A stretch of 64,000 nucleotides of DNA from Bacteriovorax stolpii (GCA_945860415.1 CAMAQA010000006.1:959-64958), one strand, 5' to 3'. Counted from the stretch's first letter, positions 6,712-46,300 are shown. Numbers and translations are program-made. The notes: generated from the sequence alone by a model not told the origin.

Positions 6712-8601
6712 TCAGATTTCCTTCTGCAGGCCGACGTACAGCGATCGCCTTGCTGTGCCATATCCGGCGACCTCCTCGTACTCGCGATCCAGCACGTTGT
6801 CGAGCCTTCCGAAGGCCTTGTATCCTCCGCCAATCGTGTAGGAAGCATCAGCATTGAAGACGGTGTAGGAGGGCATGCGGATGGTACTAAAACCCGGGTC
6901 GGTGTCGTTTCTGATGCCGACATAACGGGCATTGATCCCGAAATCGAGGCTCTGGAGTAGCTTGCGGCGAGCGCTCAGGTGCAGGCTTTGTCTGGGACGC
7001 CTGATAAGATCCTCGTTCTTGTCATTGTTCCTCGCCATTAGAAATGTGTGTTGGATCGTCAGGCTGGAGCCCGAGGGTGATGAGTAGCTGAAACTGGTTT
7101 CAAGGCCCTTGTTTGTTGCGGAACCGATGTTCTTGTACTTGAACATATCCGTCGGATCGCCAAGGATGAGATTCGAGAACTGGGATTGGAACCATGTGGT
7201 CTGGAGAGTGAGACCTGGGCCCAAATCCTGTTGCATCGACAGATCATAGCTGAAGCTGGTTTCTGATGAGAGTGAAGGATTGCCGTAAATTGGGGCGTAA
7301 ATCTGATCGAGGCTGGGGATCTTGAATCCTCTTCCCAGGCTTCCCTTGAGCGTTGTCCCAGTACTCTCGAATCGATGCCCCGGGCCCAGTCGGTAAGTCA
7401 GTTGGTTCCCAAAACCGTGAAACCGATCTCCGCGCAGTGCCACGCTGGCGAAGCTGCTTCCTGATTTCCACCTATTCTCGGAAAAAATTCCTGTTACGGA
7501 TTGGCTTACTGACGGCATCGCGCTGATGTAGGCGCCGTACTGGTCGTAAATCGAACCTCGGTCAATTTGGCTGTCGATTCCGATAGTCAGGGTGTTTGAG
7601 TCATTCAGGATGAATTGGTTCAGCTGCTCGAGACGGAATCGAGCGCCATGATAGCGCCCGGTAGCCGAATCGGCATGGATAAGGTCCGGTGCGTTATCAG
7701 TCTTTCGAAAGGTCTTGAAAAAAGAGAGCGCGATCGTCGGTTCCCAGTTGGAGTTTCCTTGGTAGCTCACTTCGGCCCGAGCAGTTCCTTGTGTCTCAAA
7801 CTGAACGTGATTGGGATCATCTCCGCCGCTTCCCCCTGAGAAAGGAAGTTCAGAGCGCGCCTGATATGCCCTTGCCGTGGTCCGAAGGTGCCACGCGTCT
7901 TTCAATTTGGTCTCGGTGGATACAGTTCCTGAAAAGTTTCGGTACCCGCTATTGATGGAGTTGCCGTACCTCGAGGAAGCGGCTGGAAATCCTTCACTCT
8001 CATCGTATCCGAAGTTGAGATTGACTGTACTTAATCCCACCTCTCTCGCTGCGAGTATTGATCCACGTCGAGTATCGAAGGCACCATATTCTCCGAAAAT
8101 CGACGCAGAGTTGCTTTGCTGGCGGCGGGTGATGATGTTGATCACGCCTCCGATGGCATTCGCACCGTGCACTCCGCTCTGTGATCCACTAAGGACTTCA
8201 ATTCGGTCCACCTGTCGAGCGTTGAGCCTGCCAAAGTCATAGCCTCTAGCCGGGCTGGATGGATCGTTCATCACCACTCCGTCGACCATGACGAGTGTCT
8301 GCTGGTATCCTGATCCCCGGATATAAACTTCGGTGAGTCTACCCGGCCCTCCGGAATTCATCACGCTCACTCCAGGGGCCGAACGTAGGAGCTCGAAGAT
8401 CGGTTTGCCGGACTGGCGGTCCGACTCGGTCGGTTCGATTACTGCGATGGACTGAGCAACCTCATCCTGGGGAGTCGTAATGCGGCTTGCCGTAATCACC
8501 ACCGGCTCGAGATTTTCGGTCTCTTCACCGTATGCCTGGGAAAGGGTCGCACAGACCGTGACCGCGCTGATGATGCAGAGCCTGTAGAGAGATCGTTGCA
8601 C
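6712..8601 (-). CDS. btuB: TonB-dependent outer-membrane receptor, inferred cobalamin transporter because a B12 riboswitch sits upstream
   Basis: Signal peptide, plug domain (VVITASRITTPQDEVAQSIAVIE... TEVYIRGSG), 629 aa barrel. GTG start. A cobalamin riboswitch lies in the 5' leader. Confidence 0.8.
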   Translation of the reverse strand: MQRSLYRLCIISAVTVCATLSQAYGEETENLEPVVITASRITTPQDEVAQSIAVIEPTESDRQSGKPIFELLRSAPGVSVMNSGGPGRLTEVYIRGSGYQQTLVMVDGVVMNDPSSPARGYDFGRLNARQVDRIEVLSGSQSGVHGANAIGGVINIITRRQQSNSASIFGEYGAFDTRRGSILAAREVGLSTVNLNFGYDESEGFPAASSRYGNSINSGYRNFSGTVSTETKLKDAWHLRTTARAYQARSELPFSGGSGGDDPNHVQFETQGTARAEVSYQGNSNWEPTIALSFFKTFRKTDNAPDLIHADSATGRYHGARFRLEQLNQFILNDSNTLTIGIDSQIDRGSIYDQYGAYISAMPSVSQSVTGIFSENRWKSGSSFASVALRGDRFHGFGNQLTYRLGPGHRFESTGTTLKGSLGRGFKIPSLDQIYAPIYGNPSLSSETSFSYDLSMQQDLGPGLTLQTTWFQSQFSNLILGDPTDMFKYKNIGSATNKGLETSFSYSSPSGSSLTIQHTFLMARNNDKNEDLIRRPRQSLHLSARRKLLQSLDFGINARYVGIRNDTDPGFSTIRMPSYTVFNADASYTIGGGYKAFGRLDNVLDREYEEVAGYGTARRSLYVGLQKEI

Positions 8602-8609: not shown

Positions 8610-8805
8610 CTTTCGTCGTTGCCAGTCACGACGAAAGGAGGTCGAGCGACCTAAAGACGAGGCTCGGTTCCCGGATCCAGAATCCCTTTTCCACGAGGAT
8701 TCGACCCCTGACGTCATTCTGGCAGTGGACCCTGGAGGGCGATCGGACTTTCACCGTTGCGGGCCAGCGCCGGAATTTCACCGGACTTCAGCCGTTCCAG
8801 GACAT
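8610..8805 (-). promoter_or_regulatory. Cobalamin (B12) riboswitch with an RBS-sequestering expression platform, in the btuB leader
   Basis: The minus strand reads ...CCGGTGAAATTCCGGCGCTGGCCCGCAACGGTGAAAGTCCG (8783-8743), matching the conserved GGUGAAAUUCC...GCUGCCCCCGCAACGGUAA core. The B12 box GTCCACTGCC is at 8730-8721. A 10-bp hairpin (CCTTTCGTCG / CGACGAAAGG, forward 8609-8638) can occlude the GAAAGG Shine-Dalgarno 9 nt before the GTG start. Confidence 0.8.
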
Positions 8806-10617: not shown

Positions 10618-13600
10618 CTACATGTTTCTGCGATACTGGCCGCCCACTTCAAAGAGGGCCTGGGTGATCTGGCCGAGCGAACAGACCTTCGTGGCCTGCA
10701 TGAGCTGGTCGAAGATGTTTCGCCCCTGGGCCGCCGCCGAGCGAAGCTCGATGAGCGATTGGCCACACTCCTCCGAGCGGAAGCGATGAAGCGCCTTCAG
10801 CATGGAGATCTGGTACTCCTTTTCGTCGTTGGTTGCTCGGATGACCTCGCGTGGAATCACCGTGGGTGAACCCTCCGACGAGAGGAATGTGTTCACGCCG
10901 ATGATCGGGTATTCGCCCGTGTGCTTGAGCATCTCGTAATGGAGCGACTCTTCCTGGATCTTGCCGCGCTGATACATCGTTTCCATCGCGCCCAGCACGC
11001 CACCGCGTTCGGTGATCCGGTCGAACTCCGCCATGACGGCCTGCTCGACGAGATCTGTGAGCTCCTCGATGATGAAGGATCCCTGGTTCGGGTTCTGGTT
11101 CTTGGCGAGGCCCAGCTCGTGGTTGATGATCAGCTGAATCGCCATCGCACGGCGCACAGAAGCCTCTGTCGGGGTCGTGATGGCCTCGTCATAGGCATTC
11201 GTGTGCAGCGAGTTGCAGTTGTCGTAGATGGCGTACAGGGCCTGCAGCGTCGTGCGGATGTCGTTGAAGTCGATCTCCTGGGCGTGGAGCGAACGTCCGG
11301 AGGTCTGGATATGGTACTTGAGCATCTGCGAGCGCGAGTCGGCACCATACTTGTGCTTGAGTGCCTTGGCCCAGATTCGTCGCGCCACGCGTCCGATGAC
11401 CGAGTACTCCGGATCGACGCCGTTCGAGAAGAAGAACGATAGGTTCGGCGCGAACTGGTTGATGTCCATGCCGCGCGAGACGTAGTACTCGACGAAGGTA
11501 AAGCCGTTGGCGAGGGTGAAGGCCAGCTGCGTGATCGGGTTCGCGCCGGCTTCGGCGATATGGTAGCCCGAGATCGACACCGAGTAGAAATTCTTGACCT
11601 GGCTTCGGATGAAGTAGTCCTGGATGTCGCCCATCATGCGCAGGGCAAACTCCGTCGAGAAGATGCAGGTGTTCTGGGCCTGGTCTTCCTTGAGGATGTC
11701 GGCCTGGACGGTGCCGCGCACCTGGCTCAGGGTGTGCGCCCGGATCTTTTCGTAGACATCCTTCGGCAAAACCTCGTCACCCGTCACTCCCAGCAGCATC
11801 AGTCCGAGGCCGTCATTTCCGGGGGGCAGCTCTCCCTGATACCGTGGGCGTGGCAGGCCCTTGGCCTGGAATAGCCCATCGATGCGCGCGTTCACTTCGT
11901 CCGTGAGACCGTTCTGGCGAATGTAGCGCTCGCACTGCTGGTCAATCGCGGCGTTCATGAAGAAGCCCACGAGCATCGGCGCGGGCCCGTTGATCGTCAT
12001 CGAGACCGAAGTCTTCGGGTCGCAGAGGTTGAAGCCCGAGTAGAGCTTCTTGGCGTCATCCAGGCAGCAGATGGATACGCCGGCGTTGCCGATCTTGCCG
12101 TAGATGTCCGGCCGTCGATCCGGGTCAAAGCCGTAAAGCGTGACCGAGTCAAAAGCGGTGGAGAGGCGCTTGGCTGGCATCGCGCGCGAGACGTAGTGGA
12201 AGCGTCGGTTCGTGCGCTCCGGGCCGCCTTCGCCAGCGAACATGCGCGTCGGGTCTTCTCCCTCGCGCTTGAACGGAAACACGCCGGCCGTGTACGGAAA
12301 TTCTCCCGGAACGTTCTCCTGAAGGCTCCAGCGCAGGATGTCTCCCCAGGCGCGGTAGCGGGGGAGGGACACCTTGGGAATCATCAGGTGCGACAGGGAT
12401 TTCGTGTGCGTCTCGACGCGAACATCCTTGCCGCGGACCTGGTAGATGAACACCGGATCGCGATAGGCCTTCACTTTTTCGGGCCATTTCGCGAGAAGGT
12501 TTCTGCATTCAGCATCGAGCTTCAGCTCGAGCTCGGAAGCCTGCTTCGCAAGGGCGTCGCGGGCTGGCTTCAGTTCAGCGCTCTCCGGAAGGACCGCCAG
12601 TGATTCACGAAGCGACTGAAGCTGGTGAGCGAGTTCCGCCTGTTTTGACGTCCACTCGTCGTAACGGCGGATGGTTTCGGTGATCTCCGAGAGGTAGCGC
12701 GTGCGCTCCGGCGGTATGATGTGGATCTTGCGCGACTCCTCGCGCGTGGCTGCCACGGATGAGGTGAACGGACTTCCGGTCTTGTTGACGATCGTGTCAA
12801 TGAGCGTCCGGTAGAGGCGGTTCATTCCAGGATCATTGAACTGCGAGGCGATGCTGCCGACCACCGGCAGGTCCTCATCGCTGCCTTCAAAGAGCTTGTG
12901 GTTGCGGCGGTACTGCTTGCGCACGTCGCGAAGCGCGTCCTGGCCTCCTCGCTTGTCGAACTTGTTGAGCGCGATCACGTCGGCAAAATCGAGCATGTCG
13001 ATTTTTTCGAGCTGGGTCGCGGCGCCATATTCCGGAGTCATCACGTAAAGCGACACATCCGAATGCTCAGTGATTTCGGTATCGCTCTGGCCGATGCCCG
13101 ACGTCTCGAGAACGATGAGATCGAAGCCTGCGGCCTGCGCGATGGTGAGCGCCTCCTTGACGTGCTTCGAGAGCGCAAGGTTCGCCTGGCGCGTGGCGAG
13201 CGAGCGCATGTACACGCCCTGGTGGTGGACGGAGTTCATGCGGATGCGATCGCCGAGGAGCGCGCCGCCGGTCTTTCGCTTCGAGGGGTCGACCGAGATG
13301 ACGGCAATGCTCTTGTTTGGAAAGTCCGTGATGAAACGACGGACGAATTCATCGATCAGCGAGGATTTTCCTGCGCCGCCAGTTCCGGTGATTCCGAGTA
13401 CGGGTGCCTTTTTTGTGCGCTTCTCCGCCGTCGCGTGAATGGCTCCGATCAGGCCCGTGTTCTGTTCTGGGGCATTTTCTGCGGCCGAGATGGCATTCCC
13501 GATGATGCGTGATTCGCGCGACTTCAGGCGCGATAGAAACTGATCCAGCTCCTTGCCGGACTGGGGCAGGCCCGAGCCCGTGGCGAAGTCGCTATTTTCG

Positions 13601-14028
13601 ATCAGGTGATTGATCATCCCCTGGAGGCCCATCGCGCGGCCATCATCGGGAGAGTAGATGCGGGTGACTCCCGCAGCATGAAGCTCCTCGATCTCCGAGG
13701 GCAGAATCACGCCGCCACCCCCGCCGAAGATTCGGATATGGCCGCAGCCGCGCTCTTTCAGCAGCTCGACCATGTACTTGAAGTACTCGACATGGCCGCC
13801 CTGATAGGAGGTCATGGCGATGGCCTGGGCGTCTTCCTGGATGGCGCAGTCCACTACCTCGGCAACCGAGCGGTTATGGCCCAGATGGATGACCTCGGCG
13901 CCGGTCGACTGCAGGATTCGCCGCATGATATTGATCGCGGCGTCGTGCCCGTCAAAGAGCGAGGCAGCCGTCACGATGCGGATCTTGTTTTTTGCCGGGT
14001 AAGCTGAGACTTCAGGGTTCTGAGCCAT
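10618..14028 (-). CDS. icmF: Fused isobutyryl-CoA mutase IcmF (B12-binding domain, MeaB-like GTPase, mutase catalytic domain)
   Basis: N-terminal B12-binding DGHDAAIN (DxHxxG) motif, P-loop [13 protein letters not shown]-terminal methylmalonyl/isobutyryl-CoA mutase TIM-barrel region; 1136 aa. Confidence 0.85.
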
Positions 14029-18321: not shown

Positions 18322-19251
18322 TCAATCGCGATGACCGAACTTGAGTTTCTCTCGAAGCAGCCCGAAGTAGTCGCGTTCCGGCGACGACACGATCTGGAGA
18401 TCGTGCTTCTTGAACCGACGGATGGTGACAAGATCGCCCTCCTTCAGGTCCACGACATCCTGTCCATCGAGGGTCAGGAGCACGTGGCCCGGGCGATGCT
18501 GCAGGCACATCTCCACAACCGAATCATCGCTGATGACCATCGGGCGCTGGGTGAGGGCGTGCGGACAGATGGCCGTGATGACGAGAGCGGGAAGCGAAGG
18601 CTCGAGGATCGGACCTCCGGCTGCAAGCGAATAGGCGGTCGATCCGGTCGGCGTGGAGACAATCACGCCGTCGGCGCGGATCTGGTTCACGTCCTTGCCG
18701 TTGATGCAGACCTGGATGCCGATGATACGGGCGATGGCACCCTTCGAAATGACCGCATCGTTCACGACGGGTCCCTGGAAGACGAGCTTGCCCTGTCGCT
18801 TGACGGTGACTTCGAGCAGCGTGCGCCTGCTGATGATCGGCGCCTTGCCGTTGAGAATCGCCGAAATCGTGGTGGCAGCTTCCGATTTCTTGATCTCGGT
18901 CAGGAATCCGAGCTGGCCCATGTTGATGCCGAGGACCGGAACGCTACGATTCTTCATGAGGCGTGCAATGCTGAGAAAAGTACCGTCGCCACCGAGGACT
19001 ACGATCAGGTCGCAGTGATCGACGAGCTTCGCCTTCGGAATCGCCTTCACTCGCGACTTCTGGATTCCCGGAAGCTTCGAGACACGAGCGGCGAGGGGGC
19101 GGCTTTCGTCAGCGAAGAGCACTTGGCGGCTGCCCGAGCTTCGGCCGTGGGTCAGGACGAATTCGGCAAGCCGGACAGCCAGATCGGCGGCCTGCGCATG
19201 ATGGTGTTTCACGACGAAGCCGACGCGTTTTCCCACGGTTTTCAAGCTCAT
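18322..19251 (-). CDS. nadK: NAD+ kinase
   Basis: CDLIVVLGGDGTFLSIARL... GINMGQLGFLTE, the GGDG motif family. The start was moved to the internal Met (MSLKTVGKRVGFVVKHH); the upstream 140 codons of the track ORF have no homology. Confidence 0.85.
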   Translation of the reverse strand: MSLKTVGKRVGFVVKHHHAQAADLAVRLAEFVLTHGRSSGSRQVLFADESRPLAARVSKLPGIQKSRVKAIPKAKLVDHCDLIVVLGGDGTFLSIARLMKNRSVPVLGINMGQLGFLTEIKKSEAATTISAILNGKAPIISRRTLLEVTVKRQGKLVFQGPVVNDAVISKGAIARIIGIQVCINGKDVNQIRADGVIVSTPTGSTAYSLAAGGPILEPSLPALVITAICPHALTQRPMVISDDSVVEMCLQHRPGHVLLTLDGQDVVDLKEGDLVTIRRFKKHDLQIVSSPERDYFGLLREKLKFGHRD

Positions 19252-19297
19252 GACTTTTAGGATAAGCAATCGGGATCCATTTGGGGAGGGTGATTCC

Positions 19298-20611
19298 ATG
19301 GATTTGTTCATGAACTCGTCAGGCGGTGAGGACGGCGGAAGTCCGGGAAGCCACGCTCCTCTGGCCCACCGCATGCGGCCCCGCGACCTGGACGAGTGGC
19401 TCGGCCATGAGCGGTTGATTGCGCCCGGTCGCCCCCTGCGCCAGTGGATCGATGCCGACCGTGTGCCCTCACTGATCCTGTGGGGTCCTCCCGGCTGTGG
19501 AAAGACGAGTTTCGGCAAGCTCCTCGCGAAGAAGACCCAGTCGCGTTTCGTCATCCTGAGCGCCGTCACGGCCGGAGTGAAGGACCTCAAGGAGAAAGGC
19601 GAGGAGGCTCGCGCGCAGCTCGCGATGTACCGCCGCAAGACGATCGTCTTCATCGATGAAATCCACCGCTTCAACAAATCGCAGCAGGATGCCCTCCTGC
19701 CCTACGTTGAGGAGGGCGCGCTCACGCTGATCGGTGCGACAACGGAAAATCCCTCGTTCGAGCTCAACTCTGCGCTCCTGTCGCGGCTTCGCGTGATTCG
19801 GCTCGAACGGCTGGACGAAGAGGCCCTGGTGAAGCTGCTCGAGCGGGCGCTCGTCGATTCAGAGCGCGGGCTGGGGGGCATCCTGCAGGTCGAGCATGAA
19901 GGGCTCGAGTTCATCGCGAAGTGCTCCGAAGGCGACGCCCGGCGCGCGCTCACGGCGCTCGAAAGCTTGGCCCTGATGGCCGGTTCGCAGAAGCTCCCAC
20001 TCGATGATGTCGTGAAGTTCCTCGGTGACTCGTCGGCACTCACCCGTCAGCCGCTTCCGTACGACAAGTCGGGAGAGGAGCATTACAATGTCGTTTCTGC
20101 GTTCATCAAGAGCATCCGAGAGAATGATCCGCATGCAGGTCTCTACTATCTCGCCCGCATGATCGAAGGAGGCGAGGACCCGATCTTTATCGCGCGCCGG
20201 CTCGTGATCTTCGCGTCGGAGGACGTCGGCAACGCTGATCCGCGAGGTCTGCAGGTGGCGATTGCGGCCAAGGATGCCGTGGAGTTCATCGGAATGCCGG
20301 AAGGACGCATTCCTCTCGCGCAGGCGGTGACCTACCTCGCGCTCGCTCCCAAGAGCCGCGCTTCGTATGAGGGTATTGGTGCGGCGCTCTCGGAGGTGCA
20401 GTCGTCAGGCGCCCAGCCCGTCCCCATGCATCTGCGAAACGCCGTCACGAAGGTCATGAAAGAAGAGGGATACGGCGCGGGCTACGGAAAAATCCGTTCG
20501 CACCTTCCTGAAAAGCTCATTGGAAAACAGTTTTACGGACCCACGGAAAATGGGCTCGAAAGACAAATGAAGGAAAAACTCGAGCGGTTAAATCCGAGTT
20601 TTGACTCCTGA
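19298..20611 (+). CDS. rarA: Replication-associated recombination protein A (MgsA/RarA AAA+ ATPase)
   Basis: LILWGPPGCGKTSFGKLLA (Walker A), IVFIDEIHRFNKSQQDALLPYVE, and a C-terminal MgsA domain. Confidence 0.9.
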   Translation: MDLFMNSSGGEDGGSPGSHAPLAHRMRPRDLDEWLGHERLIAPGRPLRQWIDADRVPSLILWGPPGCGKTSFGKLLAKKTQSRFVILSAVTAGVKDLKEKGEEARAQLAMYRRKTIVFIDEIHRFNKSQQDALLPYVEEGALTLIGATTENPSFELNSALLSRLRVIRLERLDEEALVKLLERALVDSERGLGGILQVEHEGLEFIAKCSEGDARRALTALESLALMAGSQKLPLDDVVKFLGDSSALTRQPLPYDKSGEEHYNVVSAFIKSIRENDPHAGLYYLARMIEGGEDPIFIARRLVIFASEDVGNADPRGLQVAIAAKDAVEFIGMPEGRIPLAQAVTYLALAPKSRASYEGIGAALSEVQSSGAQPVPMHLRNAVTKVMKEEGYGAGYGKIRSHLPEKLIGKQFYGPTENGLERQMKEKLERLNPSFDS

Positions 20612-20612
20612 A

Positions 20613-22346
20613 TCAGGGAGTGGGCTGGAACGCCTCCGGAACGACCGCCATTGGCCGAGCCATCTGTAGAGTGTGCTTGAGCCAGCTTCGCATCAGCTCG
20701 GCACCACGCTCGACCTGCTGCCAGGCCACGGCGGTTTCGCGGCTGACCTCGGCGATGTGTTCGCCATCGAGATTGTGCATCATGACCTTCAGCAGCGTCG
20801 AAAAGCCTGCCAGGTGCTCGTCGGCCTTTGCGAGGCGATCGACCAGGGTCTGGAGCTCGAGGATGCGCTTGCCCCTCGACTCGAGGTCTTCACGATCCTC
20901 GATGGACATGATCTTGGACGACTTCAGCGCCACGGCCCGCTGGTGGAGCTCGCGTGCGCTTCGAACCGCCTCGCGGCTGACCCGCAGGAGTACCGACGAC
21001 GACTCATCCAGAGCGCGAAGTTCCTGCAGTAGTACCGGGCGGATCGCTGCACGCGTGAGTTCCGAACCTTCGGCTGCGGTCCAGCCGCAGTACCAGAGGC
21101 GTGCAATCTGGCCATTGACCACTGCGAGCCAGTCCCTCGGTGCAAGTGGGCGTGTGAACTCGCTCTCGTAGGTCACGCCGCCGCCGTCGTCAGATGGGCG
21201 AATTCGCGAAATACGCAGGTCGATCCAATCGGAGAGGCCGCCAAACCCGAGGCTCTGGAGGTGTTGTTCGAAATTCCGGCTGCGGCGATGAGACCATTCG
21301 AAATGCAGGTAGGACCATGCGGCGTAGGCGGCCTCCGGAACGACAGGTACCGAGAGGTCGGTTGGATGCAGAAAAAGATGGCCGTTGCCATAGGCGGCAC
21401 CGGTGAAATCCGGTGAATGCTCGCGACAGACCTGCAGTGCCCGGGTTCCGAGAATGGAAGACAGGTTTGCAGGCAGGCCGTCTCCAGTAATGATCCAGTC
21501 ACATTGCGTGATGCAGTCGACCCAGAGATCGAGATCTGTCTCACCAACGAGGTTCAGCACGCGCTTTTCGGTGATGGTTGCTCCTGCAGCCTTCATTGCG
21601 TCGCGAGCGAGCTCGCGACGGCTCTCCTCGCCGAGAAGGACAAGCTGGATCTCGGGATGCCGCTCGGTCGTCAGCTCGATCAGGCGTGCCCATTGGCGAG
21701 CGTTCCAGAAATGATCGACCTGGATTCCCACCCAGGTGCGGCTCGGATCCAGAAGCTTGTCTCCAGCGGTGCGAAGCGAAGTGAAGAAGTCCTTGCCCGT
21801 GACCGGCTGGTTTCCTGCATCGATCGGATCGCCGTGGCGGACCTGAAGGGCGGTCAGAAGCTGGGTCGTCAGGATGTCCACTAGGTGGATGTTCTGCGGA
21901 ACTCCCTGCTGGATGAAGGCATGGATGAACTGGCTCCAGCCGTCGCCACTCGAGAAGTCGAGATCGGCTCGCCGCGTGTAGCCGAGGCGGTGCTGCGCCG
22001 GAAGCAGCGCGGAGAGAAAGCTGCTCGAGTCATTGAAGGTCCAGTTGGCAAGGATGTTCCATTGGGTGCCGGCAAGGCGGGCGATGGCCTGTGCGGCTTC
22101 CGGAAGAAGGTCTTCGGTGAGCTTCGCGCCTGCGTTGATCGGGTTTGCCCAGCGAGCGATGGGCAGTGCCACGACGTCCTCGAGCCAGCTCACCTCGGCC
22201 GGAATTCCGGCATGCTCCTCGCGGCAGACCAAGGTGATTTCCATCGCGGGATACAGCTGTTTTGCAGCCTTCAGCGCGATGAGCGATTGGAGGATTTCAG
22301 TGCCCCCACCGAGCTGGAGGACCACGCAGGAAACGGGGTCTTTCAT
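20613..22346 (-). CDS. GT9-family glycosyltransferase (heptosyltransferase-like) with an extra C-terminal domain of about 250 aa
   Basis: N-terminal VLQLGGGTEILQSLIALKAAKQLYPAMEITLV and the second Rossmann half look like GT9. Residues about 330-577 have no match and include a coiled coil. GGAGG lies 7 nt upstream of the ATG. Confidence 0.6.
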   Translation of the reverse strand: MKDPVSCVVLQLGGGTEILQSLIALKAAKQLYPAMEITLVCREEHAGIPAEVSWLEDVVALPIARWANPINAGAKLTEDLLPEAAQAIARLAGTQWNILANWTFNDSSSFLSALLPAQHRLGYTRRADLDFSSGDGWSQFIHAFIQQGVPQNIHLVDILTTQLLTALQVRHGDPIDAGNQPVTGKDFFTSLRTAGDKLLDPSRTWVGIQVDHFWNARQWARLIELTTERHPEIQLVLLGEESRRELARDAMKAAGATITEKRVLNLVGETDLDLWVDCITQCDWIITGDGLPANLSSILGTRALQVCREHSPDFTGAAYGNGHLFLHPTDLSVPVVPEAAYAAWSYLHFEWSHRRSRNFEQHLQSLGFGGLSDWIDLRISRIRPSDDGGGVTYESEFTRPLAPRDWLAVVNGQIARLWYCGWTAAEGSELTRAAIRPVLLQELRALDESSSVLLRVSREAVRSARELHQRAVALKSSKIMSIEDREDLESRGKRILELQTLVDRLAKADEHLAGFSTLLKVMMHNLDGEHIAEVSRETAVAWQQVERGAELMRSWLKHTLQMARPMAVVPEAFQPTP

Positions 22347-22449
22347 TCAACCGCCTCCGTGTGTTTCGTCGCAGTCTGATTCAGGTCCTGCTCTTCCTCG
22401 GCAATCGTCCGAAGAAAGGCGAGAAGCAGTGTTTCGACGTCAGCTTCGG

Positions 22450-23484
22450 TCATGCACGACTCCTGCTGGGTTGTGCGGCATTGGACTGGGCCGTGGCATA
22501 GCGTTCAATAAGCTTGGAAAGCTCGGTGGCCCCGGTATGCGTCGGCTGAATCTGGAGGATGCGAATGACCGTGCTCCGGGCCTCGTCGATCCTGCCGAGA
22601 TGAAACTGCAGGCCGGCAAGACTGTAGAGAAGATTGGCGTTCACGGGAGCGATCTGGACGTAGTCACCCAGGATCCGAGCCGCCGTGGCGTAGCTTTTGA
22701 TCTCGTAGGCGCACTTCACGAGATGGTAGATAGCGTTGGGCTGGTCGAGCTCGATCTGGAGCGACCTCGCGAACTGATCGTGTGCCTCGCGCTTGCGTCC
22801 TTCCGCGAGATAGGCGGCACCGAGGCCCGAGAGTGCGCGCGAATTGGCCGCGTTCGCCACGAGTGCATCCTCGAAAAAACGCTGTGCATCGCGCAGGCGT
22901 CCGGCCTGGAGACACAGGGCGCCGAGATTCGAGGAGATCTGGTCGCTCGTCGGGTCAATGGCCAGTGCACGCTTGTAATGATGCTCGGCCTTTTCCGTGC
23001 GCTGGGCGCGCATCCAGCAGTTTCCACAGGCCTTGTGGATTTCAAAACGCGTGGCAGGTGGAAGTTCGCGAAGGTTCAGCGAACGTTCGAGAGCATCTGC
23101 CGCAGCGGCATCATTCTTCGAGCGGATCTCGAGCATCGCCAGGCAGCGATAGGCCTCGAGGTGGGGCTCATAGGCGATGGCATCCTGGTAGGATCTCCGG
23201 GCCTTTGCAGCCTGTCCGTCCGTTTCGTAGGTCTGTCCGAGAGTGCGAAGGGCCCAGCCAACGAAGGTTCCGCTCCGGATCATCGCAATCAGGATGTTCC
23301 TGGCCAGCATGATGTCGCCGGCGGCAATCAGCATCTCTGCGCTCGAGCGAAGCTCATCGGAATCGGGTGAAAACGGCACGGCTTCGTTGCGAGTGACGGC
23401 TCCGGGCACGCCGGCAAACGAAGTGGTCTGAATCTGCTGGAGAAGTTCATCCACGGTGGGGGTGCGATTGAAATCGAGGCTCAT
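22450..23484 (-). CDS. TPR-repeat protein
   Basis: Multiple 34-aa TPR-like repeats (AYLAEGRKREAHDQFARSLQI...). Its ATG overlaps the stop of the upstream FlgN-like gene (ATGA). Confidence 0.6.
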   Translation of the reverse strand: MSLDFNRTPTVDELLQQIQTTSFAGVPGAVTRNEAVPFSPDSDELRSSAEMLIAAGDIMLARNILIAMIRSGTFVGWALRTLGQTYETDGQAAKARRSYQDAIAYEPHLEAYRCLAMLEIRSKNDAAAADALERSLNLRELPPATRFEIHKACGNCWMRAQRTEKAEHHYKRALAIDPTSDQISSNLGALCLQAGRLRDAQRFFEDALVANAANSRALSGLGAAYLAEGRKREAHDQFARSLQIELDQPNAIYHLVKCAYEIKSYATAARILGDYVQIAPVNANLLYSLAGLQFHLGRIDEARSTVIRILQIQPTHTGATELSKLIERYATAQSNAAQPSRSRA

Positions 23485-23924
23485 AGTGTCTGGTCCAACC
23501 CTTCTCCCTGGTCGGGCATCCACTGGCTCTTGAATTTCGAGAGCTTGTCGCGAAGTCGACCATGATCCTGGATCTCGCGGGCAAGCCCCTGCCGTGCGGA
23601 ATCGATGATCAGGATGATCCTGGCATCCAGCTCTTGCAGGCTACGGGCGAGATCCTGGTGCTGCACAATGATTTCGCGAACGGAACTATTCCACTCGGGC
23701 GAGTGGGAGAGGTGCGGAGAGAGCTCGTTGATGCGGCGGTCGATCAGTTCGATGGCCCGGAATGCGTCTTCGCGCCTGCGGTCGAAGTCAGCAATGAGCC
23801 CGGGCAACGGGCCCTGGGCGGACTCCGCCAACTCGAGGAAGCTCCTCGAAATGTCCACCAGCTGCACGAGGCAGCGCGATTTGCCCCTGAGAAGGGCATG
23901 CACGTCTTTTTGCACATCCATATG
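23481..23924 (-). CDS. Hypothetical protein downstream of fliS (FlgN/FliT-like position, alpha-helical)
   Basis: Placed by synteny only (fliD-fliS-X). Internal Met start MDVQKDVHALL chosen because the TTG-extended track ORF overlaps fliS by 73 nt. Confidence 0.45.
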   Translation of the reverse strand, partial: HMDVQKDVHALLRGKSRCLVQLVDISRSFLELAESAQGPLPGLIADFDRRREDAFRAIELIDRRINELSPHLSHSPEWNSSVREIIVQHQDLARSLQELDARIILIIDSARQGLAREIQDHGRLRDKLSKFKSQWMPDQGEGLDQTL

Positions 23925-23944
23925 CAATTCCGTACGCCGTTTCG

Positions 23945-24364
23945 TCAGCCCGACAATCCATTCGGGCCATTGTTCTGGGGCTGTCCTCGGTTGACCTGAT
24001 CTACGGCCACCCGCCAACCCTCCAAAAGAGTCTCCATCAGTTTCTGGACGTGTTGCAATGGCTCTTTTTTGTTTTCGAGGTTGGCCTTGATCAGCTGTTC
24101 CGACATGAACATGTAGAGGCGCTCGAGATTCTTGGCGATTTCGCCTCCGGTCTCGAAGTCCAGCGTGTTGTTCAGCTCGTTCACGATGTCATGGGCCTTG
24201 ACGATGGCCATGCCCTTGCCTGGAACGTCATTGCGGTCGATGCACTCCGCCGCTTTTTTGACGTTCCGTATGGCTGATTCGTACAGCATGATCAGGATTT
24301 GTCCGCGGTTGGCGGTTTTGACGGAAGTCTGCTTGTATTGGTTCGCTCCAAAATTGCCTGCCAT
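23945..24364 (-). CDS. fliS: Flagellar export chaperone FliS
   Basis: YKQTSVKTANRGQILIMLYESAIRNVKKA...LERLYMFMSEQLIKAN matches the FliS family pattern. Confidence 0.9.
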   Translation of the reverse strand: MAGNFGANQYKQTSVKTANRGQILIMLYESAIRNVKKAAECIDRNDVPGKGMAIVKAHDIVNELNNTLDFETGGEIAKNLERLYMFMSEQLIKANLENKKEPLQHVQKLMETLLEGWRVAVDQVNRGQPQNNGPNGLSG

Positions 24365-24407
24365 GCTGGTTCCTTTCAGTTCGTGTTCAATGCCCCGTTA
24401 ATTCCGT

Positions 24408-25808
24408 TCATCCCAGGAGTTGTCCGATCATGCCGCCGCCGCCTCCTCCTCCGAGCGTCGCCTGGAGGTACTGCCCCTGGCGCTGCATGGAGGAGAGGGT
24501 GCCCTGCAGTCGCGAGAACTGGTCGGTCACCGCCTGGATACGGCGTTCAATGTTCCGGTTCTTCATGTCGATCTGGCCGTCGATCTGCTTGATTCGCTGG
24601 CGCATTCCCGCCTCGCGGTTCGCCAGCAGGCCATCGCCCGTCCGAATGTACCCGTCGAGTGCACGTGCCATCGACTGCCCGAAGCCATTCGGGCCCGTGA
24701 TGGCCTGGCCGAGTCCCTCGAAGTCACGCTCGAGCTCTTTCTTGAACTTGTCTTCCTTGAAGGTCAGGAGGCCGTTCTTCTCGAACTCCACCCCGATCTG
24801 GCTGAGCTGGTAGGTCTTGATGACATCGCCTTCCTCGTCCACCACGGGCAGTGGCTTGTGGATGAGGTTTCGAAGCTGGAACTCGATGTTCTGGAGCGAG
24901 GTGTCGCCCGCGAAAGTAGTCCTGGTATCGGTATTCTGGTCGACCTGGTTCTGCTTGTTGATGAACTCCAGGATCTTGTTGACCTCTTCGACCAGGCCCT
25001 TCACCTTGCCGGCCACCTTCGAGTAGTCCTCGCTGATGGTCATGGTGAACGGGGCTCCCGGCTTTGCCGCCTTGAGCTCGACGCTCACGCCCGTCAGGAA
25101 ATCCGGAACCTGGTTGCCTTCCGTCTCGATCGCGAATCCGTCGATGTACAGCATGGAATTCTGGGCGTCGTGATTGTCCTCGATATAGAAGTCCTGCTTG
25201 CCATCCAAAAAATAGAACTGGGGAAACTCGATCGCATCGTCGGCGCCGTCATTCTTGGCGGAGATCAGCAGTCTCCATGGACGATCCGGATCCGTGCCAT
25301 CCTTGACGACTGAAGCCTTCACGGGAGCTTCGCTCTGGCGATTGATCAAGGTCGCGATCCCGCGCAGGCTCGCATTGTTCTCCTCGACCAGGATCTCCGT
25401 TGTTTCTCCATTCTCGAGATTCATCCGGATATAGCCCATTCCCAGCGATTTTTCTTCGGCGTCCTCGACTGGATTCGAGATGATCGAGCTCCGTTCAGCG
25501 AGCTCCGAAACTTCCAGCGTATAGGTTCCGGGCTCGGCCTTCTCCTTGTCGAGCGAGACGCCCATCAAGTTCGCGCCTTCTCCCAGATCCACCTTCAGCT
25601 CGCGGAATTTCCTGAAGTCGGTGAACTCGCTGATGGCTTTGCTGATGCCGCCGAACTTGGACTTGAAGTCCTGGAAAAGCTTCAGGCGTGCCTCTTCGTT
25701 GGCCTTTCGTGCTTCGAGCGCCTTTACCGGCTGTTTCTCCGCCTCGATCATGGCCTGGACTGCCTGCTTGAATTGGCCTCCCCCGACGGGGTCAAAACGC
25801 AAACCCAT
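24408..25808 (-). CDS. fliD: Flagellar filament cap protein FliD
   Basis: N- and C-terminal coiled-coil FliD segments (..KQPVKALEARKANEEARLKLFQDFKSKF.. ; ..RIQAVTDQFSRLQGTLSSMQRQGQYLQ..); 466 aa. Confidence 0.85.
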   Translation of the reverse strand: MGLRFDPVGGGQFKQAVQAMIEAEKQPVKALEARKANEEARLKLFQDFKSKFGGISKAISEFTDFRKFRELKVDLGEGANLMGVSLDKEKAEPGTYTLEVSELAERSSIISNPVEDAEEKSLGMGYIRMNLENGETTEILVEENNASLRGIATLINRQSEAPVKASVVKDGTDPDRPWRLLISAKNDGADDAIEFPQFYFLDGKQDFYIEDNHDAQNSMLYIDGFAIETEGNQVPDFLTGVSVELKAAKPGAPFTMTISEDYSKVAGKVKGLVEEVNKILEFINKQNQVDQNTDTRTTFAGDTSLQNIEFQLRNLIHKPLPVVDEEGDVIKTYQLSQIGVEFEKNGLLTFKEDKFKKELERDFEGLGQAITGPNGFGQSMARALDGYIRTGDGLLANREAGMRQRIKQIDGQIDMKNRNIERRIQAVTDQFSRLQGTLSSMQRQGQYLQATLGGGGGGGMIGQLLG

Positions 25809-25843
25809 GCTCCGATCAGTATCCTACGGAGAAGAAGCCGGGT

Positions 25844-27910
25844 TCAATCGGCAGAGGTTGCCGGGGTGCCCAGCGAGGAAGTGGGCAACGGAGCGGGACT
25901 CCACTCGACCACTTCGGCGTTGCGAATGGTGAGTGCGCGAAGGTCGCGGCTCCAGGTTCCATCACGGACGGTGATCTTTCCGGTGACTCCGGCAGTGTCA
26001 CGAATTTGTCGGATCCGTGCCGCCACCTTCATGCGATCGACGCTGGAGGACGATGACTCGGCGGCGACGATCCTCGCCAGGATCGAGGTGGTATCGAAGG
26101 CCGTTGCTTCGATGCTCGATGCCTCGATGCCGAAGGTTCCTCGAAACTTTTGTGAAAAATCGCGTACCGAGGCGGAGCCGGCCTTGGAGAAGTAGGAATC
26201 CATGAAGATGGCCGACTCGCCGGACTTGTCTGCACGTTGAAGAAACTCGGACGAGTTCCAGGCGGAGATACCCAGGACCTTCAAGGAATCAATGTCTCGA
26301 TAGGCGAACGTCGGAAGCACCAGGCTTGCAGCCTTGGGCTCGTCAGGAATGAACACCGCATCGAAGTTCACGATGGGCACCAGCCCATAATACTTTTCGG
26401 TCCGACGATTGCGCTTCTTGATCTGGTCGCGCTCCCGGACGCGGGCGAGCTCCACGAGCTCGCGCTTGCGCGAGTCGGTGTAGAAGAGGCCGGCCAGTCG
26501 ATCGATGGGCTTGCGGAAATCGGTTTCGCCCGGGTCATAGGTTTCGTAGGCAGTGATCGAGCCGCCGAGCTCTTCGACGGCGTTCCAGAACTCGCGGCTG
26601 TACTCTTCACCGAAGCGGTCCCTGGGAGCGAGGATCGCGAATCTCGTCAGCCCCATCTTCTCGATGGCGTGACGGGCAAGCTCGGCCGTCTGCATCTTCG
26701 GCGTGACGGCCGCCTGCGTGCTGAATTCACCGAGAGTTCCTGACTGCTGGGCAAGAGAGACGAGCGGAATCGAAAGCTCCTCGGCGCGTTGGATGACGGC
26801 ATCAGCCCCCTTGCTGAGGATCGGCCCGAGGACAGCTGCCACGCGGTGCTCGGAATGCAGGCGCTCCAATGCGCGGACCGCCGTCTCCGCATCTTCTCCG
26901 CTGTCCTCGATCACGAGCTGAACCTTGAGGTCGGGATTCGGTCCGAATACTCCGGTGGCGAGCGAGGCGGCCTGGATGATTTTTTGGCTGATGCGTGAAA
27001 ATCGACCAGACTGGGGAATCAGCAGCCCGATCGACAGGTCTCCGCTGATCACCGCCTGTCTCATTCCACGAAGCAGGGCCTGGGCATCCGAAGCCTTGGG
27101 GCTGTTCGGATGGATCCTTAGAAAATCGCGCAGCTGATCGCGTGCTTCCATGGTCTTTCGTTGTTCGACGAGAAACTCGATAGACCTGAACTGCACGCGG
27201 TCGCTAAAGCTGGAAGGTTCGGCTGCCTTGTCGAGCTCTCTCAGCTGCTCGCGCGAATCCATCGCGGCAAGGAGCCTCTCGACATTGCTCAGGATGTTTT
27301 CCAGCGATATCCGGAGCTCGTCGCGGCGGCGATCCAGCGTGATCCAGGTGGAAAGAGCCTCGCGCAGATTGCCTTGTTTTTCGTGGCATCTGGAGCGGAG
27401 CAGGAAGTACTTGAGGCGATTGGGAGCATCCAGTGATTCCGGGTCAATCGCCTGTAGCTCGCGCGTTGCGTCCTGCAGCTTTCCGGCATCGAGCAGGGCT
27501 GCTGCAAAATTGTAGCGGACGTAGGACTTCCAGTTTCGGTCTCCGAGCAGTGCGTCCGGCGCCCGGGCCAGCGCAGCCTGGAAGCATTCGGCCGCACGAG
27601 AGGCGTCGCGGGTCAGCAGATGGGCGAGCCCCTTGAGGTTCAATACTTCGGGAAGGCGGACACTGGTCGGAAAATCCCGTTCAAAGGCAGTAGCGCGTTC
27701 AATGACCAGGGAGTAGGCTGACCGTCCGTAAAGGGACTGCACTTCGAGGAATCGTTCACGGTCACCATCCTGCACGGATGTCTTCGCCGTAGCGCCGGAA
27801 AGGACCTCGTCCGAAGGCGAGGCTGAGGTCAGTGGCGCGAAAAGGAGCAATGCAAGGTGAGTGGCCGCAAGGACCGCCACCCGGTGACTCAGGACGGGAC
27901 GAGGAACCAT
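25844..27910 (-). CDS. Periplasmic TPR plus type-I periplasmic-binding-fold protein (LpoA/LppC-like)
   Basis: Signal peptide, N-terminal TPR region, C-terminal Leu/Ile/Val-binding-protein-like fold; 688 aa, similar in architecture to LpoA. Confidence 0.5.
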   Translation of the reverse strand: MVPRPVLSHRVAVLAATHLALLLFAPLTSASPSDEVLSGATAKTSVQDGDRERFLEVQSLYGRSAYSLVIERATAFERDFPTSVRLPEVLNLKGLAHLLTRDASRAAECFQAALARAPDALLGDRNWKSYVRYNFAAALLDAGKLQDATRELQAIDPESLDAPNRLKYFLLRSRCHEKQGNLREALSTWITLDRRRDELRISLENILSNVERLLAAMDSREQLRELDKAAEPSSFSDRVQFRSIEFLVEQRKTMEARDQLRDFLRIHPNSPKASDAQALLRGMRQAVISGDLSIGLLIPQSGRFSRISQKIIQAASLATGVFGPNPDLKVQLVIEDSGEDAETAVRALERLHSEHRVAAVLGPILSKGADAVIQRAEELSIPLVSLAQQSGTLGEFSTQAAVTPKMQTAELARHAIEKMGLTRFAILAPRDRFGEEYSREFWNAVEELGGSITAYETYDPGETDFRKPIDRLAGLFYTDSRKRELVELARVRERDQIKKRNRRTEKYYGLVPIVNFDAVFIPDEPKAASLVLPTFAYRDIDSLKVLGISAWNSSEFLQRADKSGESAIFMDSYFSKAGSASVRDFSQKFRGTFGIEASSIEATAFDTTSILARIVAAESSSSSVDRMKVAARIRQIRDTAGVTGKITVRDGTWSRDLRALTIRNAEVVEWSPAPLPTSSLGTPATSAD

Positions 27911-43389: not shown

Positions 43390-46300
43390 ATGGATCTGAG
43401 CGCCGCCAACAGTCGCTTTTTCCGCCGGTTTGCGTGGATGCGTCCCCGCGCAGGCTTCCGTGCGCTCCTGGTTGTAGCGACCTCGTCGCTAGGGCTCAGC
43501 GCCTGTTCCATGGGGCTTTTTTCGGACGGCAAGGACGCTTCCGTCCTGGCTCAAAAGCCCTATCGCCCCGACAATTCACTCTGCGCGAACATCGACATCC
43601 GCTCGAGCGACGTGAGTGTTCCGCAATTTCGTGAACTCCTCGCATGCTTGAATTCCAATGGGTCTCTTTCCGAGATCCAGAAGCTCACCGATCTGATGAG
43701 TGACGAGGACCTGCTGCCGCTCGTGCGAGTTGGCAACGAGCAGTTCTTCAAGAACCCCGTCTACCTTTACCAGTTCGAGAAGACGTTTGCCCAATGGGCG
43801 GCCCAAGGTCTTCTTGCTGAAGATCTCGACCAGATCGGCGGACTGATTCGAAATGATGCGTGGATCCGAAGTGTCCTGGCGCTGATGGCAAAGGCCGACA
43901 CGAGGATCTACAGCGCACTCGAAATCATCGCGCGGGATCTGGATGCAGAAAAGCTGTCGCGCAGTTTCGAGGCACTGGTTGCCACGATTGAATCACCGGC
44001 ATTCAAGAGCCTCCAGGACCGCCTGCGCGTTCCCGGCCAGTCTCCACTGACCCTCGACGAGATGGCCGCCGCGATCATGGCTTACATTCGGGCACAGCGT
44101 GCTCCGGGAAGGGTGGACGTCGATCGTCGAGTGCTGCGCGCCATTGCCGACGGCTCTCTCTTCATGGTGCTGGATGACTTTTCGCTCAGCCTCTCTCCTG
44201 CAGGAGATCTTCGAGAAAGCGTGGCCAGGTTTTCTGCACTGTCAAACCAGCTGAGCGCGCGTGAGTCGCGGATCCTTGGAGTGGGGCCGCGCCGTGATGC
44301 CGAGCGTTTCCGTGATCTCCTGGGCCTGGTCAATGGCATGCATGCTCCGATCGCCTGCCTGAAGGGCACGCAAGTCGTTCCGAACGGAGTGATGTTCGTG
44401 CTCCGCGAGCTTTCCAGCCGATCGACGAAAGACGCGGATCACTTCCTGCGACGGGAGAATTTGCTCAACCTTTCGCTCCTGAATTCGATCTGTGAATTTC
44501 CGGATGCGCTATCGAAGCATTACTCCGCTCTCCAGTCGCTGTCGTCGACCGACACGCTCTTTACCGCAGTAGAATTTGCAAAATCCTTTTACCGGAACGG
44601 CTCGGCGGAACTTCTGGTCGACGCTCTCGGCGGAGAGGGCACCGGCGCGGGAGTGCATTCCTCGCTGCCGTCGCCGATGATCGAGCTGATGCCGATTCTC
44701 TCGGAGATGACGAGCCGCGGAGCAATGGAGGATCTCTACCTGCTGGTTTCCTCGATTCGGCAGGAGGATCGCGCCAAGTGGCAGCAGTTCTTTTCTTTCC
44801 TGGTCGAGAGCCGGCCCGAGCTGGGGGGAGCGTCGATCTACGACGTGCTTTACGATACGGTCATCCGAGCGGATGAAGGCGTGATTGCCGATCTGATGCA
44901 GGGCTTCAGCCAGTTCATGTCGCAACGGGACGATATTTTCGCCCCGGCCCTGCGAAGCATGCGCCGGGTGCTGCTCATGAACAATGTCCATCCGATCCAG
45001 GACGTGATCGTGGGCATGCTCAGGAGTCCGGAGCAGAATCGCGACTTCTTCGAGGCGATCTTCAAGACAGCCCGCAGGCACCCGGAGGAATTTGAAGGTG
45101 CCATTCGGCTCGTCGGAGAGATGACCCGCTCCGAGGATGGTCGGCTGAAGGACGTCATTGGCGCGACCGTTCGCGTCTTCTCCAAGTTTGCCGCCCAGGG
45201 CGAAGCTGCGGGCCGGGTGGAGAATCGCCAAGTCCCGGCGTTTGATCCGGCACTTTTGCGTGCGCATCACTGGAGCCGACAGGATCTGGTGGCCGTGGTT
45301 CCACAGCTCCTGCCGGACTGGAAAGGTTGCAGCGGACTTTCTCCCACCGTCAGGCTGGATCAGTATGAAAATCCCGCGCATGCCGAATCTCTGGACAACT
45401 ACCTGCAATGCCTGGATTCGGATGGAAAACACTCGGATATCGTCAGCGTCTTCCAGTACCTGCGAGGCGAAAAAACCTCGAATGGAAAGCCGCTGCTCCA
45501 TCACTGGCTGGACCAGGTTCGGTCAGTCGACCTGAGCCCGACGGCGATCCAACAGCTCATCCGAAGCTTCTTCAACCTGTATGACGAAGGAACACTCTTC
45601 CGCGGGGTGGATCTCCTTCCGTGGTGGCTCAGCTATGACTTCGCAGGCGGTCGCGGTTCGGCTCCGTCAACGCTCCTTTCGCCACTCATCGACGTGATTG
45701 GTGGCGTGGTTCGCAAGGCAGGAGATTCGCTCGTCCGGTTCCAGAAGTTCGGAGGAGAACTCGTCACCGGTGATGCCGTGCCTGGAGCGCTGGATTTCGT
45801 GAACAGCGTCACCAAGACGCTGCCTGCTGCAACGCCTTTCACCGACACGGTGGAATTTCCGGTCAAGCCCTTCCAGGCTCCGCTCTGGCAGTATGAGTGC
45901 CTGGCTCGTCCTGCCGACCAGGCGATGCGCGCGGATCAGCTCGTGCGCGATTACGGCCGGGCCATTTCAGCGTGGCAGGTCAACGCTTCAGGTCGTCCTC
46001 GCTATGGCTGGGGAAAAAGGGAGCTCCGCGACGAGCTGGCTTCCGTGGCACAGAAGTTTTCGGACCCGTCCCAGGGGCCGGTGCTGGCGAAGCTCGTCGA
46101 CTTCCTTCGGATGATGTCGCTTGGAGCGGGCGAGCGCCCGACCCAGGGGCGGCTCCACCACTGGAGCGAGCTCCGAGATTGGCTGGCCCTTCGTGCGACT
46201 GACTGGCACCTGATTCCGTATTTCTATCCGGGCGAGGAGAATCCGCGCCTCAAGATGGCAAGCACGCTCGACCTTTTCGAGATGCTCGTGATCAACGCGG

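Follow-up and report, generated by a model that had tools for sequence, protein, structure and literature searches.

An extended GT9-type protein encoded in the fliD-fliS operon of Bacteriovorax stolpii, a candidate pseudo-glycosyltransferase of flagellar filament assembly

We analysed a 64,000-nucleotide stretch of Bacteriovorax stolpii DNA (GCA_945860415.1 CAMAQA010000006.1:959-64958; the whole stretch is called the window hereafter). It carries a filament-stage flagellar operon with the order fliD-fliS-orfX-TPR-sORF-GT9x, in which orfX encodes a FliT-like protein, the small open reading frame (sORF) a 36-aa microprotein, and GT9x a GT9-like protein with a long C-terminal extension. This order is fixed across a large, mostly uncultured lineage of Bdellovibrionota, and we are highly confident that the gene set around GT9x is a flagellar module. 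On balance, we favour the reading that the module was ancestrally a glycosyltransferase system for the flagellar filament, and that the GT9x of the window is a pseudo-glycosyltransferase, retained because it serves filament assembly in some non-catalytic way. We lean this way because the donor-site lysine loop, the D..H motif and the DUF8042 partner of GT9x are gone, yet strong purifying selection persists.

Relatives for comparison came from a homologue search that gave 88 clusters of full-length proteins of 570-650 aa (coverage 98-100%), every one of them from metagenome bins of Bdellovibrionota/Oligoflexia, and from a locus scan with one genome per species that gave 77 loci (30-96% identity); apart from a few bins with other labels, these carried the label Bdellovibrionota. 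Closest to the window is L001 (96%), from a freshwater Bdellovibrionia bin. Catalytic positions were placed by aligning a family-wide profile to WaaC, a lipopolysaccharide (LPS) heptosyltransferase. In this alignment WaaC D13 corresponds to the family motif RLGD, K192 to the lysine of GAGxxxK(T)W and D261/H266 to DTAxxHLA, and all three motifs are kept in most family members, among them the isolates Bdellovibrionota FG-1 and FG-2 (loci L071 and L022). The clade to which the window belongs (P0001-P0012; L001-L004, L062) departs from this pattern. At the catalytic-base position (WaaC D13, TibC D110) the window has Glu17, within GGGTEILQS, where its clade has D or E and most of the family RLGD. 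The lysine loop (WaaC K192, TibC K230) has disappeared from the clade through a deletion of 5-7 residues (QV-----DHF--WNA versus QLGAGxxxKTW). At WaaC D261/H266 the window reads GDGLPANLS, with the histidine replaced; variants elsewhere in the clade are HRPLPAMM, FQALPAQL and CSPLPAQL, the histidine being lost in every member and the aspartate in most. Two of the three catalytic motifs of an active GT9 enzyme are thus wanting in the window copy. In TibC, heptosylation requires Asp110 and Lys230 (PMC4358343). A second group, of low identity, is likewise degenerate (L045, L056, L060, L061, L064-L067, L070). A rough neighbour-joining tree has intact sequences as outgroups and on its basal branches, which makes the loss of the donor motifs derived; one loss or several would both be compatible with the tree.

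The loss extends to a partner gene. Directly after GT9x, 40 of the 77 loci have a gene that we call orfY (about 190-206 aa; for example L050:11902-12495 and L069:11785-12399), the product of which is a DUF8042 homologue (hhalign 99.6%, E 4.9e-24); its hosts are relatives in which the catalytic motif is intact, besides some that are partly degenerate. A tblastn search found no DUF8042 gene in the window, and orfY is missing from every fully degenerate member of the family. Because the lysine loop is deleted, the D..H motif is degenerate and the DUF8042 partner is absent, active sugar transfer by the window GT9x appears doubtful, and to judge from its sequence the protein is likely to be inactive as a GT9-type transferase.

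Nevertheless, GT9x is not decaying: GT9x, the TPR protein and the microprotein are all under strong purifying selection. Between the window and L001, the ratio of non-synonymous to synonymous substitution rates (dN/dS) was 0.031 for the whole of GT9x (0.027 for aa 1-200, 0.042 for aa 201-350 and 0.025 for the C-terminal domain), as low as that of fliD (0.047) and fliS (0.021). The corresponding values were 0.043 for the TPR gene, 0.086 for orfX and 0.136 for the sORF. Moreover, family-specific invariant residues are kept in intact and degenerate clades alike, both in the body (H154, D157, T160-T165 (TTQLLT) and YGN.H at 319-323) and beyond it (I382-R383, GGG at 388-390, R416, W418 and CGW at 420-422). 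The low dN/dS together with these retained invariants points to selection on something besides canonical donor binding.

The same conservation might be expected if the window GT9x were still an active glycosyltransferase on flagellin or FliD, with a remodelled donor pocket or a different donor. Selection is strong over the entire GT-B body, C-lobe included; Glu17 stands at the catalytic-base position and the Asp in GDG is retained; H154, D157, TTQLLT and YGNGH persist in both clades; and the flagellar glycosylation context of the relatives, described below, is clear. We still consider continued transfer unlikely. The phosphate-binding lysine loop has been deleted outright (5-7 residues), and the equivalent lysine is needed in TibC; the free variation at the D..H motif, where all clade members have lost the His and most the Asp, looks like relaxed constraint; and the DUF8042 partner was lost in parallel.

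The GT9 likeness of GT9x is weak by sequence and strong by fold. The protein matched PF01075 with 31.5 bits (cut-off 22), over aa 213-317 only, which correspond to positions 120-219 of the 247 in the model; its sequence match to RfaF (1psw) had an E of 0.004, and its identity to WaaC/WaaF is 14-17%. An AlphaFold (AF2) structure built from an alignment of 41 homologues gave a predicted local distance difference test score (pLDDT) of 90.6 and a predicted template modelling score (pTM) of 0.89. In this model, residues 1 to about 350 adopt a GT-B fold with two Rossmann-like lobes. Foldseek matched it to WaaC (2gt1/2h1h), 6dfe, the Veillonella GT9 protein 3tov and RfaF (1psw) with E of 1e-10 to 1e-8, the best match having a template modelling (TM) score of 0.77 of the target. 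A preliminary description of this DNA, made from the sequence, had placed the enzyme in GT9; the fold match to WaaC (E 1e-10) bears this out more strongly than the Pfam score does.

The rest of the protein (about 352-577) is an extension of about 225 aa, somewhat shorter than the 250 aa first given. It is predicted to comprise a beta-hairpin (375-395), which lies within the extension and not at the position of the TibC thumb, and four long helices (403-420, 437-473, 482-524 and 531-562), which together would form a compact bundle packed on the GT-B body. This differs from the free coiled coil that had been proposed. When modelled alone, the extension reached a pLDDT of 88.5. The earlier statement that it matches nothing held up: it belongs to no Pfam family, newer precomputed annotation included, has no sequence match in the PDB, and showed no significant similarity to PDB folds, the best hits being designed helix bundles (E 0.05). 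It does have motifs of its own, RIR..DGGGV.YE and ARxW(Y/F)CGW, which are invariant in alignments of 41 and 24 sequences, window included.

One further feature of the family was seen close to the end of the body. In many intact relatives, YGNGH is followed by a Cys/His-rich insertion (CxxC-x9-15-HxC; CxxC..C..C in the distant relatives P0178, P0206 and P0222), located at about columns 425-450 of alignment A1, for example in P0019, P0023, P0029, P0049, P0067, P0070, P0079 and P0084. From its sequence it looks like a metal finger and recalls the iron finger of TibC. The window GT9x has no Cys finger.

The operon lies on the minus strand (Table 1), and the Pfam and NCBIfam assignments of FliD, FliS and the TPR protein are unambiguous. 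Open reading frame (ORF) calls, Pfam, NCBIfam and direct reading of the DNA agree with the order fliD, fliS, helical ORF, TPR, GT9-like gene that had been described, and the reported overlap of the TPR start with the preceding stop is present (ATG 23484-23482, stop 23483-23481, ATGA). In contrast, the 100-nt gap that had been placed between the TPR and GT9x genes is occupied by the 36-codon sORF, the ATG of which overlaps the TPR stop while its stop overlaps the GT9x ATG, as ATGA both times when the DNA is read directly. The ribosome-binding site assigned to GT9x does exist, as a GGAGG, but the view of it as following a gap had overlooked the translationally coupled microprotein gene in which it lies. 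The outer boundary of 24017 given earlier is the TTG of the longest orfX ORF, which overlaps fliS; the ATG in Table 1 is the likely start.

Table 1. Genes and elements of the fliD-GT9x operon and its immediate neighbours (positions in the window)
Feature	Position	Strand	Remarks
fliD, filament cap, 466 aa, first gene of the string	24408..25808	-	Pfam FliD_C 134 bits, FliD_N 43.6 bits; NCBIfam FliD
fliS, flagellin export chaperone, 139 aa	23945..24364	-	Pfam FliS 136.5 bits; TIGR00208 99.5 bits, exceeding its cut-off
orfX, 146-aa helical protein at the FliT position	23481..23921	-	ATG 23921, stop 23481
TPR protein, 344 aa	22450..23484	-	TPR_2 85 bits, TPR_19 73 bits, others
sORF, 36-aa microprotein MTEADVETLLLAFLRTIAEEEQDLNQTATKHTEAVE	22343..22453	-	ATGA overlaps at both ends
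GGAGG ribosome-binding site of GT9x	22354..22358	-	Inside the sORF 3' end; 7 nt before the ATG at 22346
GT9x (577 aa), GT-B (GT9-like) body, aa 1-350	21297..22346	-	Degenerate donor site
GT9x C-terminal extension, aa 351-577 and stop	20613..21296	-	Predicted beta-hairpin and four-helix bundle
PBP/LppC-like protein with signal peptide	25844-27910	-	Upstream of fliD
rarA/mgsA	19250-20611	opposite to operon	Converges on the GT9x 3' end; the GT9x stop abuts rarA

The sORF is a real gene, translationally coupled at both ends. An ORF of about 22-95 codons (with one longer outlier) lies between the TPR and GT9x genes in nearly all related loci, and in most of them this ORF ends in an overlap with the start of GT9x. 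Aligned, the peptides give the pattern M.(A)D...L.GE(V).E.P.....DVE.LL.GFL.AL..EQ, and their core is (D/N)VE.LL.GFL.AL..EQ; the window clade has kept the amphipathic helical core only and has lost the N-terminal MA.D..LLQGEV.E.P part. A comparable small ORF (...IFLLLDELLKEQLSEIN) occurs just before the very distant GT9x of L078.

Neither a signal peptide nor a membrane segment is present in orfX, the sORF product or GT9x. An N-terminal signal peptide is also missing from the TPR protein, and the stretch of it that is most hydrophobic (aa 51-69) includes Asp and Arg. It has 245 standalone homologues, and none of the best 120 of these 245 is a fusion of a TPR protein with a transferase. As for expression, a search for sigma-28-like promoters (TAAA-N13-17-CCGATA) found no match, and scans of 20300-26300 for sigma-70 promoters and terminators gave nothing above chance; because of this, it is from the gene overlaps that we take the genes to be one transcription unit. 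A scan against Rfam detected no RNA family within the operon.

Does the arrangement recur? Among the 77 loci, tblastn with the window proteins found fliD-fliS-orfX-TPR-GT9x in every locus with enough upstream sequence, so that the survey of relatives for fliS-X-TPR-GT9 suggested in the preliminary description has a clear outcome. Likewise, a TPR orthologue lies upstream of GT9x in every related locus with flank. In 17 related loci, flagellin genes of about 275 aa (one or two in tandem) lie no more than 10 kb from the operon, never adjacent to it; these loci include L011, L015, L019, L020, L025, L033, L036, L044, L055, L060, L071, L073 and L075.

Beyond Bdellovibrionota, a profile search of 1.84 billion representatives returned 373 proteins at E<1e-30 and 2382 at E<1e-10. 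The more distant proteins are 480-585 aa long and have intact GT9 motifs, a Cys-rich insertion (CxxC..C..C) and a helical C-terminal domain. GT9x belongs to an undescribed superfamily, which we call extended GT9 and which combines a WaaC-like GT-B body with a helical C-terminal domain of about 225 aa. The genomic contexts of ten distant members were looked up. In all ten, the GT9x gene, a GT9 pair or a further transferase gene is followed closely by a gene for a DUF8042 (PF26154)/TP0873_N-type protein. In eight of the ten, the pair lies among genes for flagellin, FliD, FliS, FliT, FlgK/FlgL, FliW/CsrA, FlgM and MotAB. The same islands hold genes typical of flagellin glycosylation, namely those for Maf (PF01973), PF13524 transferases, GT2-TPR fusions and NeuB, as well as CMP-sugar synthetase (CTP_transf_3), DegT aminotransferase and asparagine-synthase-like enzymes. 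The window GT9x shares with this superfamily the GT9 body, the helical domain with its motifs RIR..DGGGV and ARxW(Y/F)CGW and the location among flagellar filament genes, and lacks the downstream DUF8042 gene. A full-text literature search retrieved no description of a GT9-type enzyme in flagellin glycosylation, nor of any transferase linked to fliD/fliS in Bdellovibrio.

Given the fixed synteny in Bdellovibrionota loci and the flagellar context of eight of the ten distant relatives, the extended-GT9 family is flagellar and not an LPS-core enzyme family. The linkage to flagella proposed in the preliminary description is therefore corroborated, through synteny in related loci and through the place of distant relatives inside flagellin glycosylation islands. 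The opposite picture, an enzyme that clusters with WaaC/WaaF, with an extension common among those and no flagellar linkage in relatives, is not what we found. The sugar modification of flagellin or cap proteins proposed at the same time fared less well for the window itself: its flagellar side stands, but this copy lacks the donor lysine loop, the D..H motif and DUF8042. Nothing supports the other proposal, modification of LPS in a flagellar sheath.

That last idea deserves a fuller account, since the closest solved structures are those of the LPS heptosyltransferases WaaC and RfaF, and some Bdellovibrionota flagella are sheathed. GT9x could on this basis be an LPS or lipid-linked heptosyltransferase that acts on the membrane sheath of the flagellum or on the core of LPS; it would be encoded in the fliD operon so as to be co-expressed with sheath formation. 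We judge this very improbable. Scores against the WaaC/WaaF/WaaQ equivalogs of NCBIfam were about 18-20 bits, against cut-offs of 134-569; the neighbours of GT9x are flagellar and housekeeping genes, not LPS-core genes, and extended-GT9 relatives keep company with Maf, PF13524, GT2-TPR, flagellin, FliT and FliS genes instead of LPS core genes; what is conserved alongside GT9x is a soluble TPR protein and small helical proteins, with no membrane segment; and the window copy has lost its donor site.

Equally, the TPR, sORF and GT9x genes could be passengers beside fliD-fliS, without flagellar function, in a neighbourhood that arose by chance or was inherited in one lineage. The 77 close loci do represent a single phylum-level lineage, such that shared ancestry inflates the synteny count, and other neighbours are often conserved too (lppC upstream; rarA, nadK and recN downstream). 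Yet stop/start overlaps tie orfX, TPR, sORF and GT9x into one translational unit; the block has remained intact where its downstream neighbours rarA, nadK and recN were repeatedly split from GT9x by insertions of 0.5-8 kb; and the very distant relatives, at 25-30% identity, again lie beside flagellin, FliD, FliS and FliT, in other gene orders. Passenger status is accordingly the most improbable of the alternatives to a flagellar module with a non-catalytic GT9x.

The small gene orfX is probably a divergent member of the FliT chaperone family, to judge by its position and by weak similarities. The window protein itself matches no Pfam or NCBIfam family. When its orthologues were scanned one by one against Pfam, 10 of 18 matched FliT (PF05400) below threshold (best E 7.7e-5) and 3 of 18 matched FlgN. 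The gene sits directly after fliS, in the FliT position, and in distant relatives a FliT gene comes after the GT9x-DUF8042 pair. A profile search against the PDB found designed coiled coils and TM0693 (E 0.012) only, and hhalign comparisons with single FliT, FlgN-like and FlgM-like proteins of distant loci were not significant. We also noted a conserved C-terminal tail in orfX orthologues, KFKSxW...GEGLDxxL (window 23481-23540), with F130, S132, G139 and D143 invariant. We know of no such tail in FliT, and it might be a docking motif.

The remainder of the window consists of housekeeping genes (dnaK, dnaJ, recN, nadK, ribosomal proteins, dnaB, a Bat/MoxR cluster and others). Outside the operon it contains no further flagellar gene and no flagellin; it has no sugar-nucleotide biosynthesis gene and no Pse/Leg gene, and neither the window nor the Bdellovibrionota operon has a Maf gene. 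The PBP/LppC/TPR-domain signal-peptide protein is encoded 35 nt upstream of fliD, after dnaK-dnaJ, and most related loci likewise have this gene shortly before fliD, at times 1-3 kb away. Elsewhere, an AdoCbl-II cobalamin riboswitch (Rfam RF01689, 39.9 bits) at 8729-8803 (-) precedes the gene of a TonB-dependent receptor at 6712-8601 (-), presumably for B12 uptake, and a fused B12-binding/MeaB/methylmalonyl-CoA-mutase (IcmF-like) protein of 1136 aa is encoded nearby at 10618-14028 (-). Finally, a 1424-aa ORF at 43390-47664 (+), with coding-like GC content at third codon positions (0.70) and no Pfam match at E<1e-5, is followed closely by a MoxR-DUF58-vWA-vWA/TPR-BatD (Bat-like) cluster at 47698-55269.

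By analogy with known systems, the module may work like a split FlmG, consisting of a TPR adaptor and a GT-B transferase, with WaaC as its nearest structural and TibC/AAH as its nearest conceptual relative. In FlmG, the flagellin O-glycosyltransferase of Caulobacter crescentus, the TPR domain binds flagellins and is needed for their modification (PMC7591256). Both systems encode a TPR module and a cytoplasmic GT-B transferase together with flagellar filament genes, and PF13524 transferases, assumed to be FlmG-like, adjoin extended-GT9 genes in distant relatives. In contrast to FlmG, TPR protein and transferase are encoded separately here, on either side of a microprotein gene; the transferase resembles GT9 and has an extra helical domain, instead of belonging to PF13524; no pseudaminic-acid genes lie nearby in the window; and the window copy is without donor-site residues.

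TibC/AAH, the bacterial autotransporter heptosyltransferases (BAHT), are GT9-related GT-B enzymes that carry out cytoplasmic protein O-heptosylation from ADP-heptose, with a catalytic Asp and Lys equivalent to WaaC D13 and K192 (PMC4358343). A further likeness lies in the Cys insertion of many intact GT9x relatives, which occurs late in the C-lobe and recalls the TibC iron finger. However, GT9x falls outside the BAHT group: its model has no N-terminal beta-barrel, the Rossmann strand starting at residue 6; the window copy has no Cys finger; TibC for its part has no C-terminal helical bundle; and the genomic context of GT9x, like its presumed substrates, is flagellar, not that of an autotransporter. 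WaaC/WaaF (RfaC/RfaF) of CAZy family GT9 provide the best structural match to aa 1-350, and the family-level motifs align, whereas GT9x has the extra 225-aa domain, a flagellar instead of an LPS context and, in the window copy, neither lysine loop nor D..H motif.

Two flagellin-modifying systems are of interest for other reasons. GmaR is a GT2 enzyme with a TPR region of its own, from the Firmicutes. In Listeria monocytogenes it is reported to be both the flagellin O-GlcNAc transferase and the anti-repressor of MogR (PMC3150276, PMC9638930). It offers a precedent, by analogy, for a flagellin transferase with a second, non-catalytic role in flagellar control, and a role of that sort might have maintained selection on GT9x once catalysis was gone; no MogR-like partner was seen here. 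Maf proteins (PF01973) transfer nonulosonic acids to flagellin, and their genes share islands with distant extended-GT9 relatives. Maf acts on flagellin before export, and its fold is unrelated to that of GT9x.

These comparisons suggest a model for the ancestral system, for which a filament-protein glycosyltransferase is in our view rather probable. Before export, and still in the cytoplasm, a filament protein (flagellin or FliD) would be recruited by the soluble TPR protein, and GT9x would transfer a sugar onto it, with the microprotein and DUF8042 as accessory subunits. As donor one would first think of ADP-heptose, on the model of GT9 enzymes and TibC/AAH. The Bdellovibrionota operon lacks genes for sugar biosynthesis, so that it would be economical to draw on a donor which the cell already makes for LPS, such as ADP-heptose. 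Heptosylation has precedent in the protein O-heptosylation by TibC/AAH and in the O-heptose found on FliC of enterotoxigenic Escherichia coli (ETEC; PMC5000012). In the window clade, catalysis would then have been lost, the set of TPR protein, microprotein and GT9x being retained for a non-catalytic role. GT9x might bind flagellin or FliD or escort it, or might have a checkpoint or regulatory function, in each case in complex with its two partners, TPR protein and microprotein; our confidence in any specific role of this kind is low.

Several points weigh against the reading of GT9x as a retained pseudo-glycosyltransferase. Loss of canonical residues is not strict proof that all catalysis has been lost, and the window copy does keep Glu17 at the catalytic-base position and the Asp of GDG. 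The tie between motif loss and DUF8042 loss runs one way only, since about 15 intact members also have no detectable downstream DUF8042 and some partly degenerate members keep it. No sugar-nucleotide biosynthesis gene occurs in the window or downstream of GT9x in 14 related loci, and no flagellin gene is adjacent to the operon. The complex of TPR protein, microprotein and GT9x is one that we infer only from coupling and co-conservation, and the acceptor could be FliD, flagellin or something else.

Flagellin glycosylation is known to depend on Maf, FlmG, GmaR and a few other transferases. A GT9-type enzyme with a helical domain of its own and fixed partners, namely DUF8042, a TPR protein and a microprotein, is not known to have been described, and the literature search retrieved none. 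If the family glycosylates filament proteins, it would be a new and apparently widespread class of enzyme, and it might add heptose to flagellar biology. The microprotein is a clear case of a conserved, translationally coupled gene concealed in an apparent intergenic gap. More tentatively, and with rather less confidence than we place in the reading as a whole, we propose two things together: that extended GT9 with DUF8042 is an unrecognised, widespread branch of flagellar glycosylation with a GT9-type, possibly heptose, transferase; and that the window protein is a pseudo-glycosyltransferase turned filament-stage assembly or checkpoint factor, which might hold or sense flagellin or FliD by its acceptor surface and helical domain, with the TPR protein and microprotein, independently of sugar transfer. 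The family link to flagellar glycosylation, the conserved microprotein and the contrast between intact and degenerate members all appear worth following. In this respect the lineage of the window is a natural experiment, in which the donor site and one partner were lost while tight selection was kept, and which separates non-catalytic function from catalysis.

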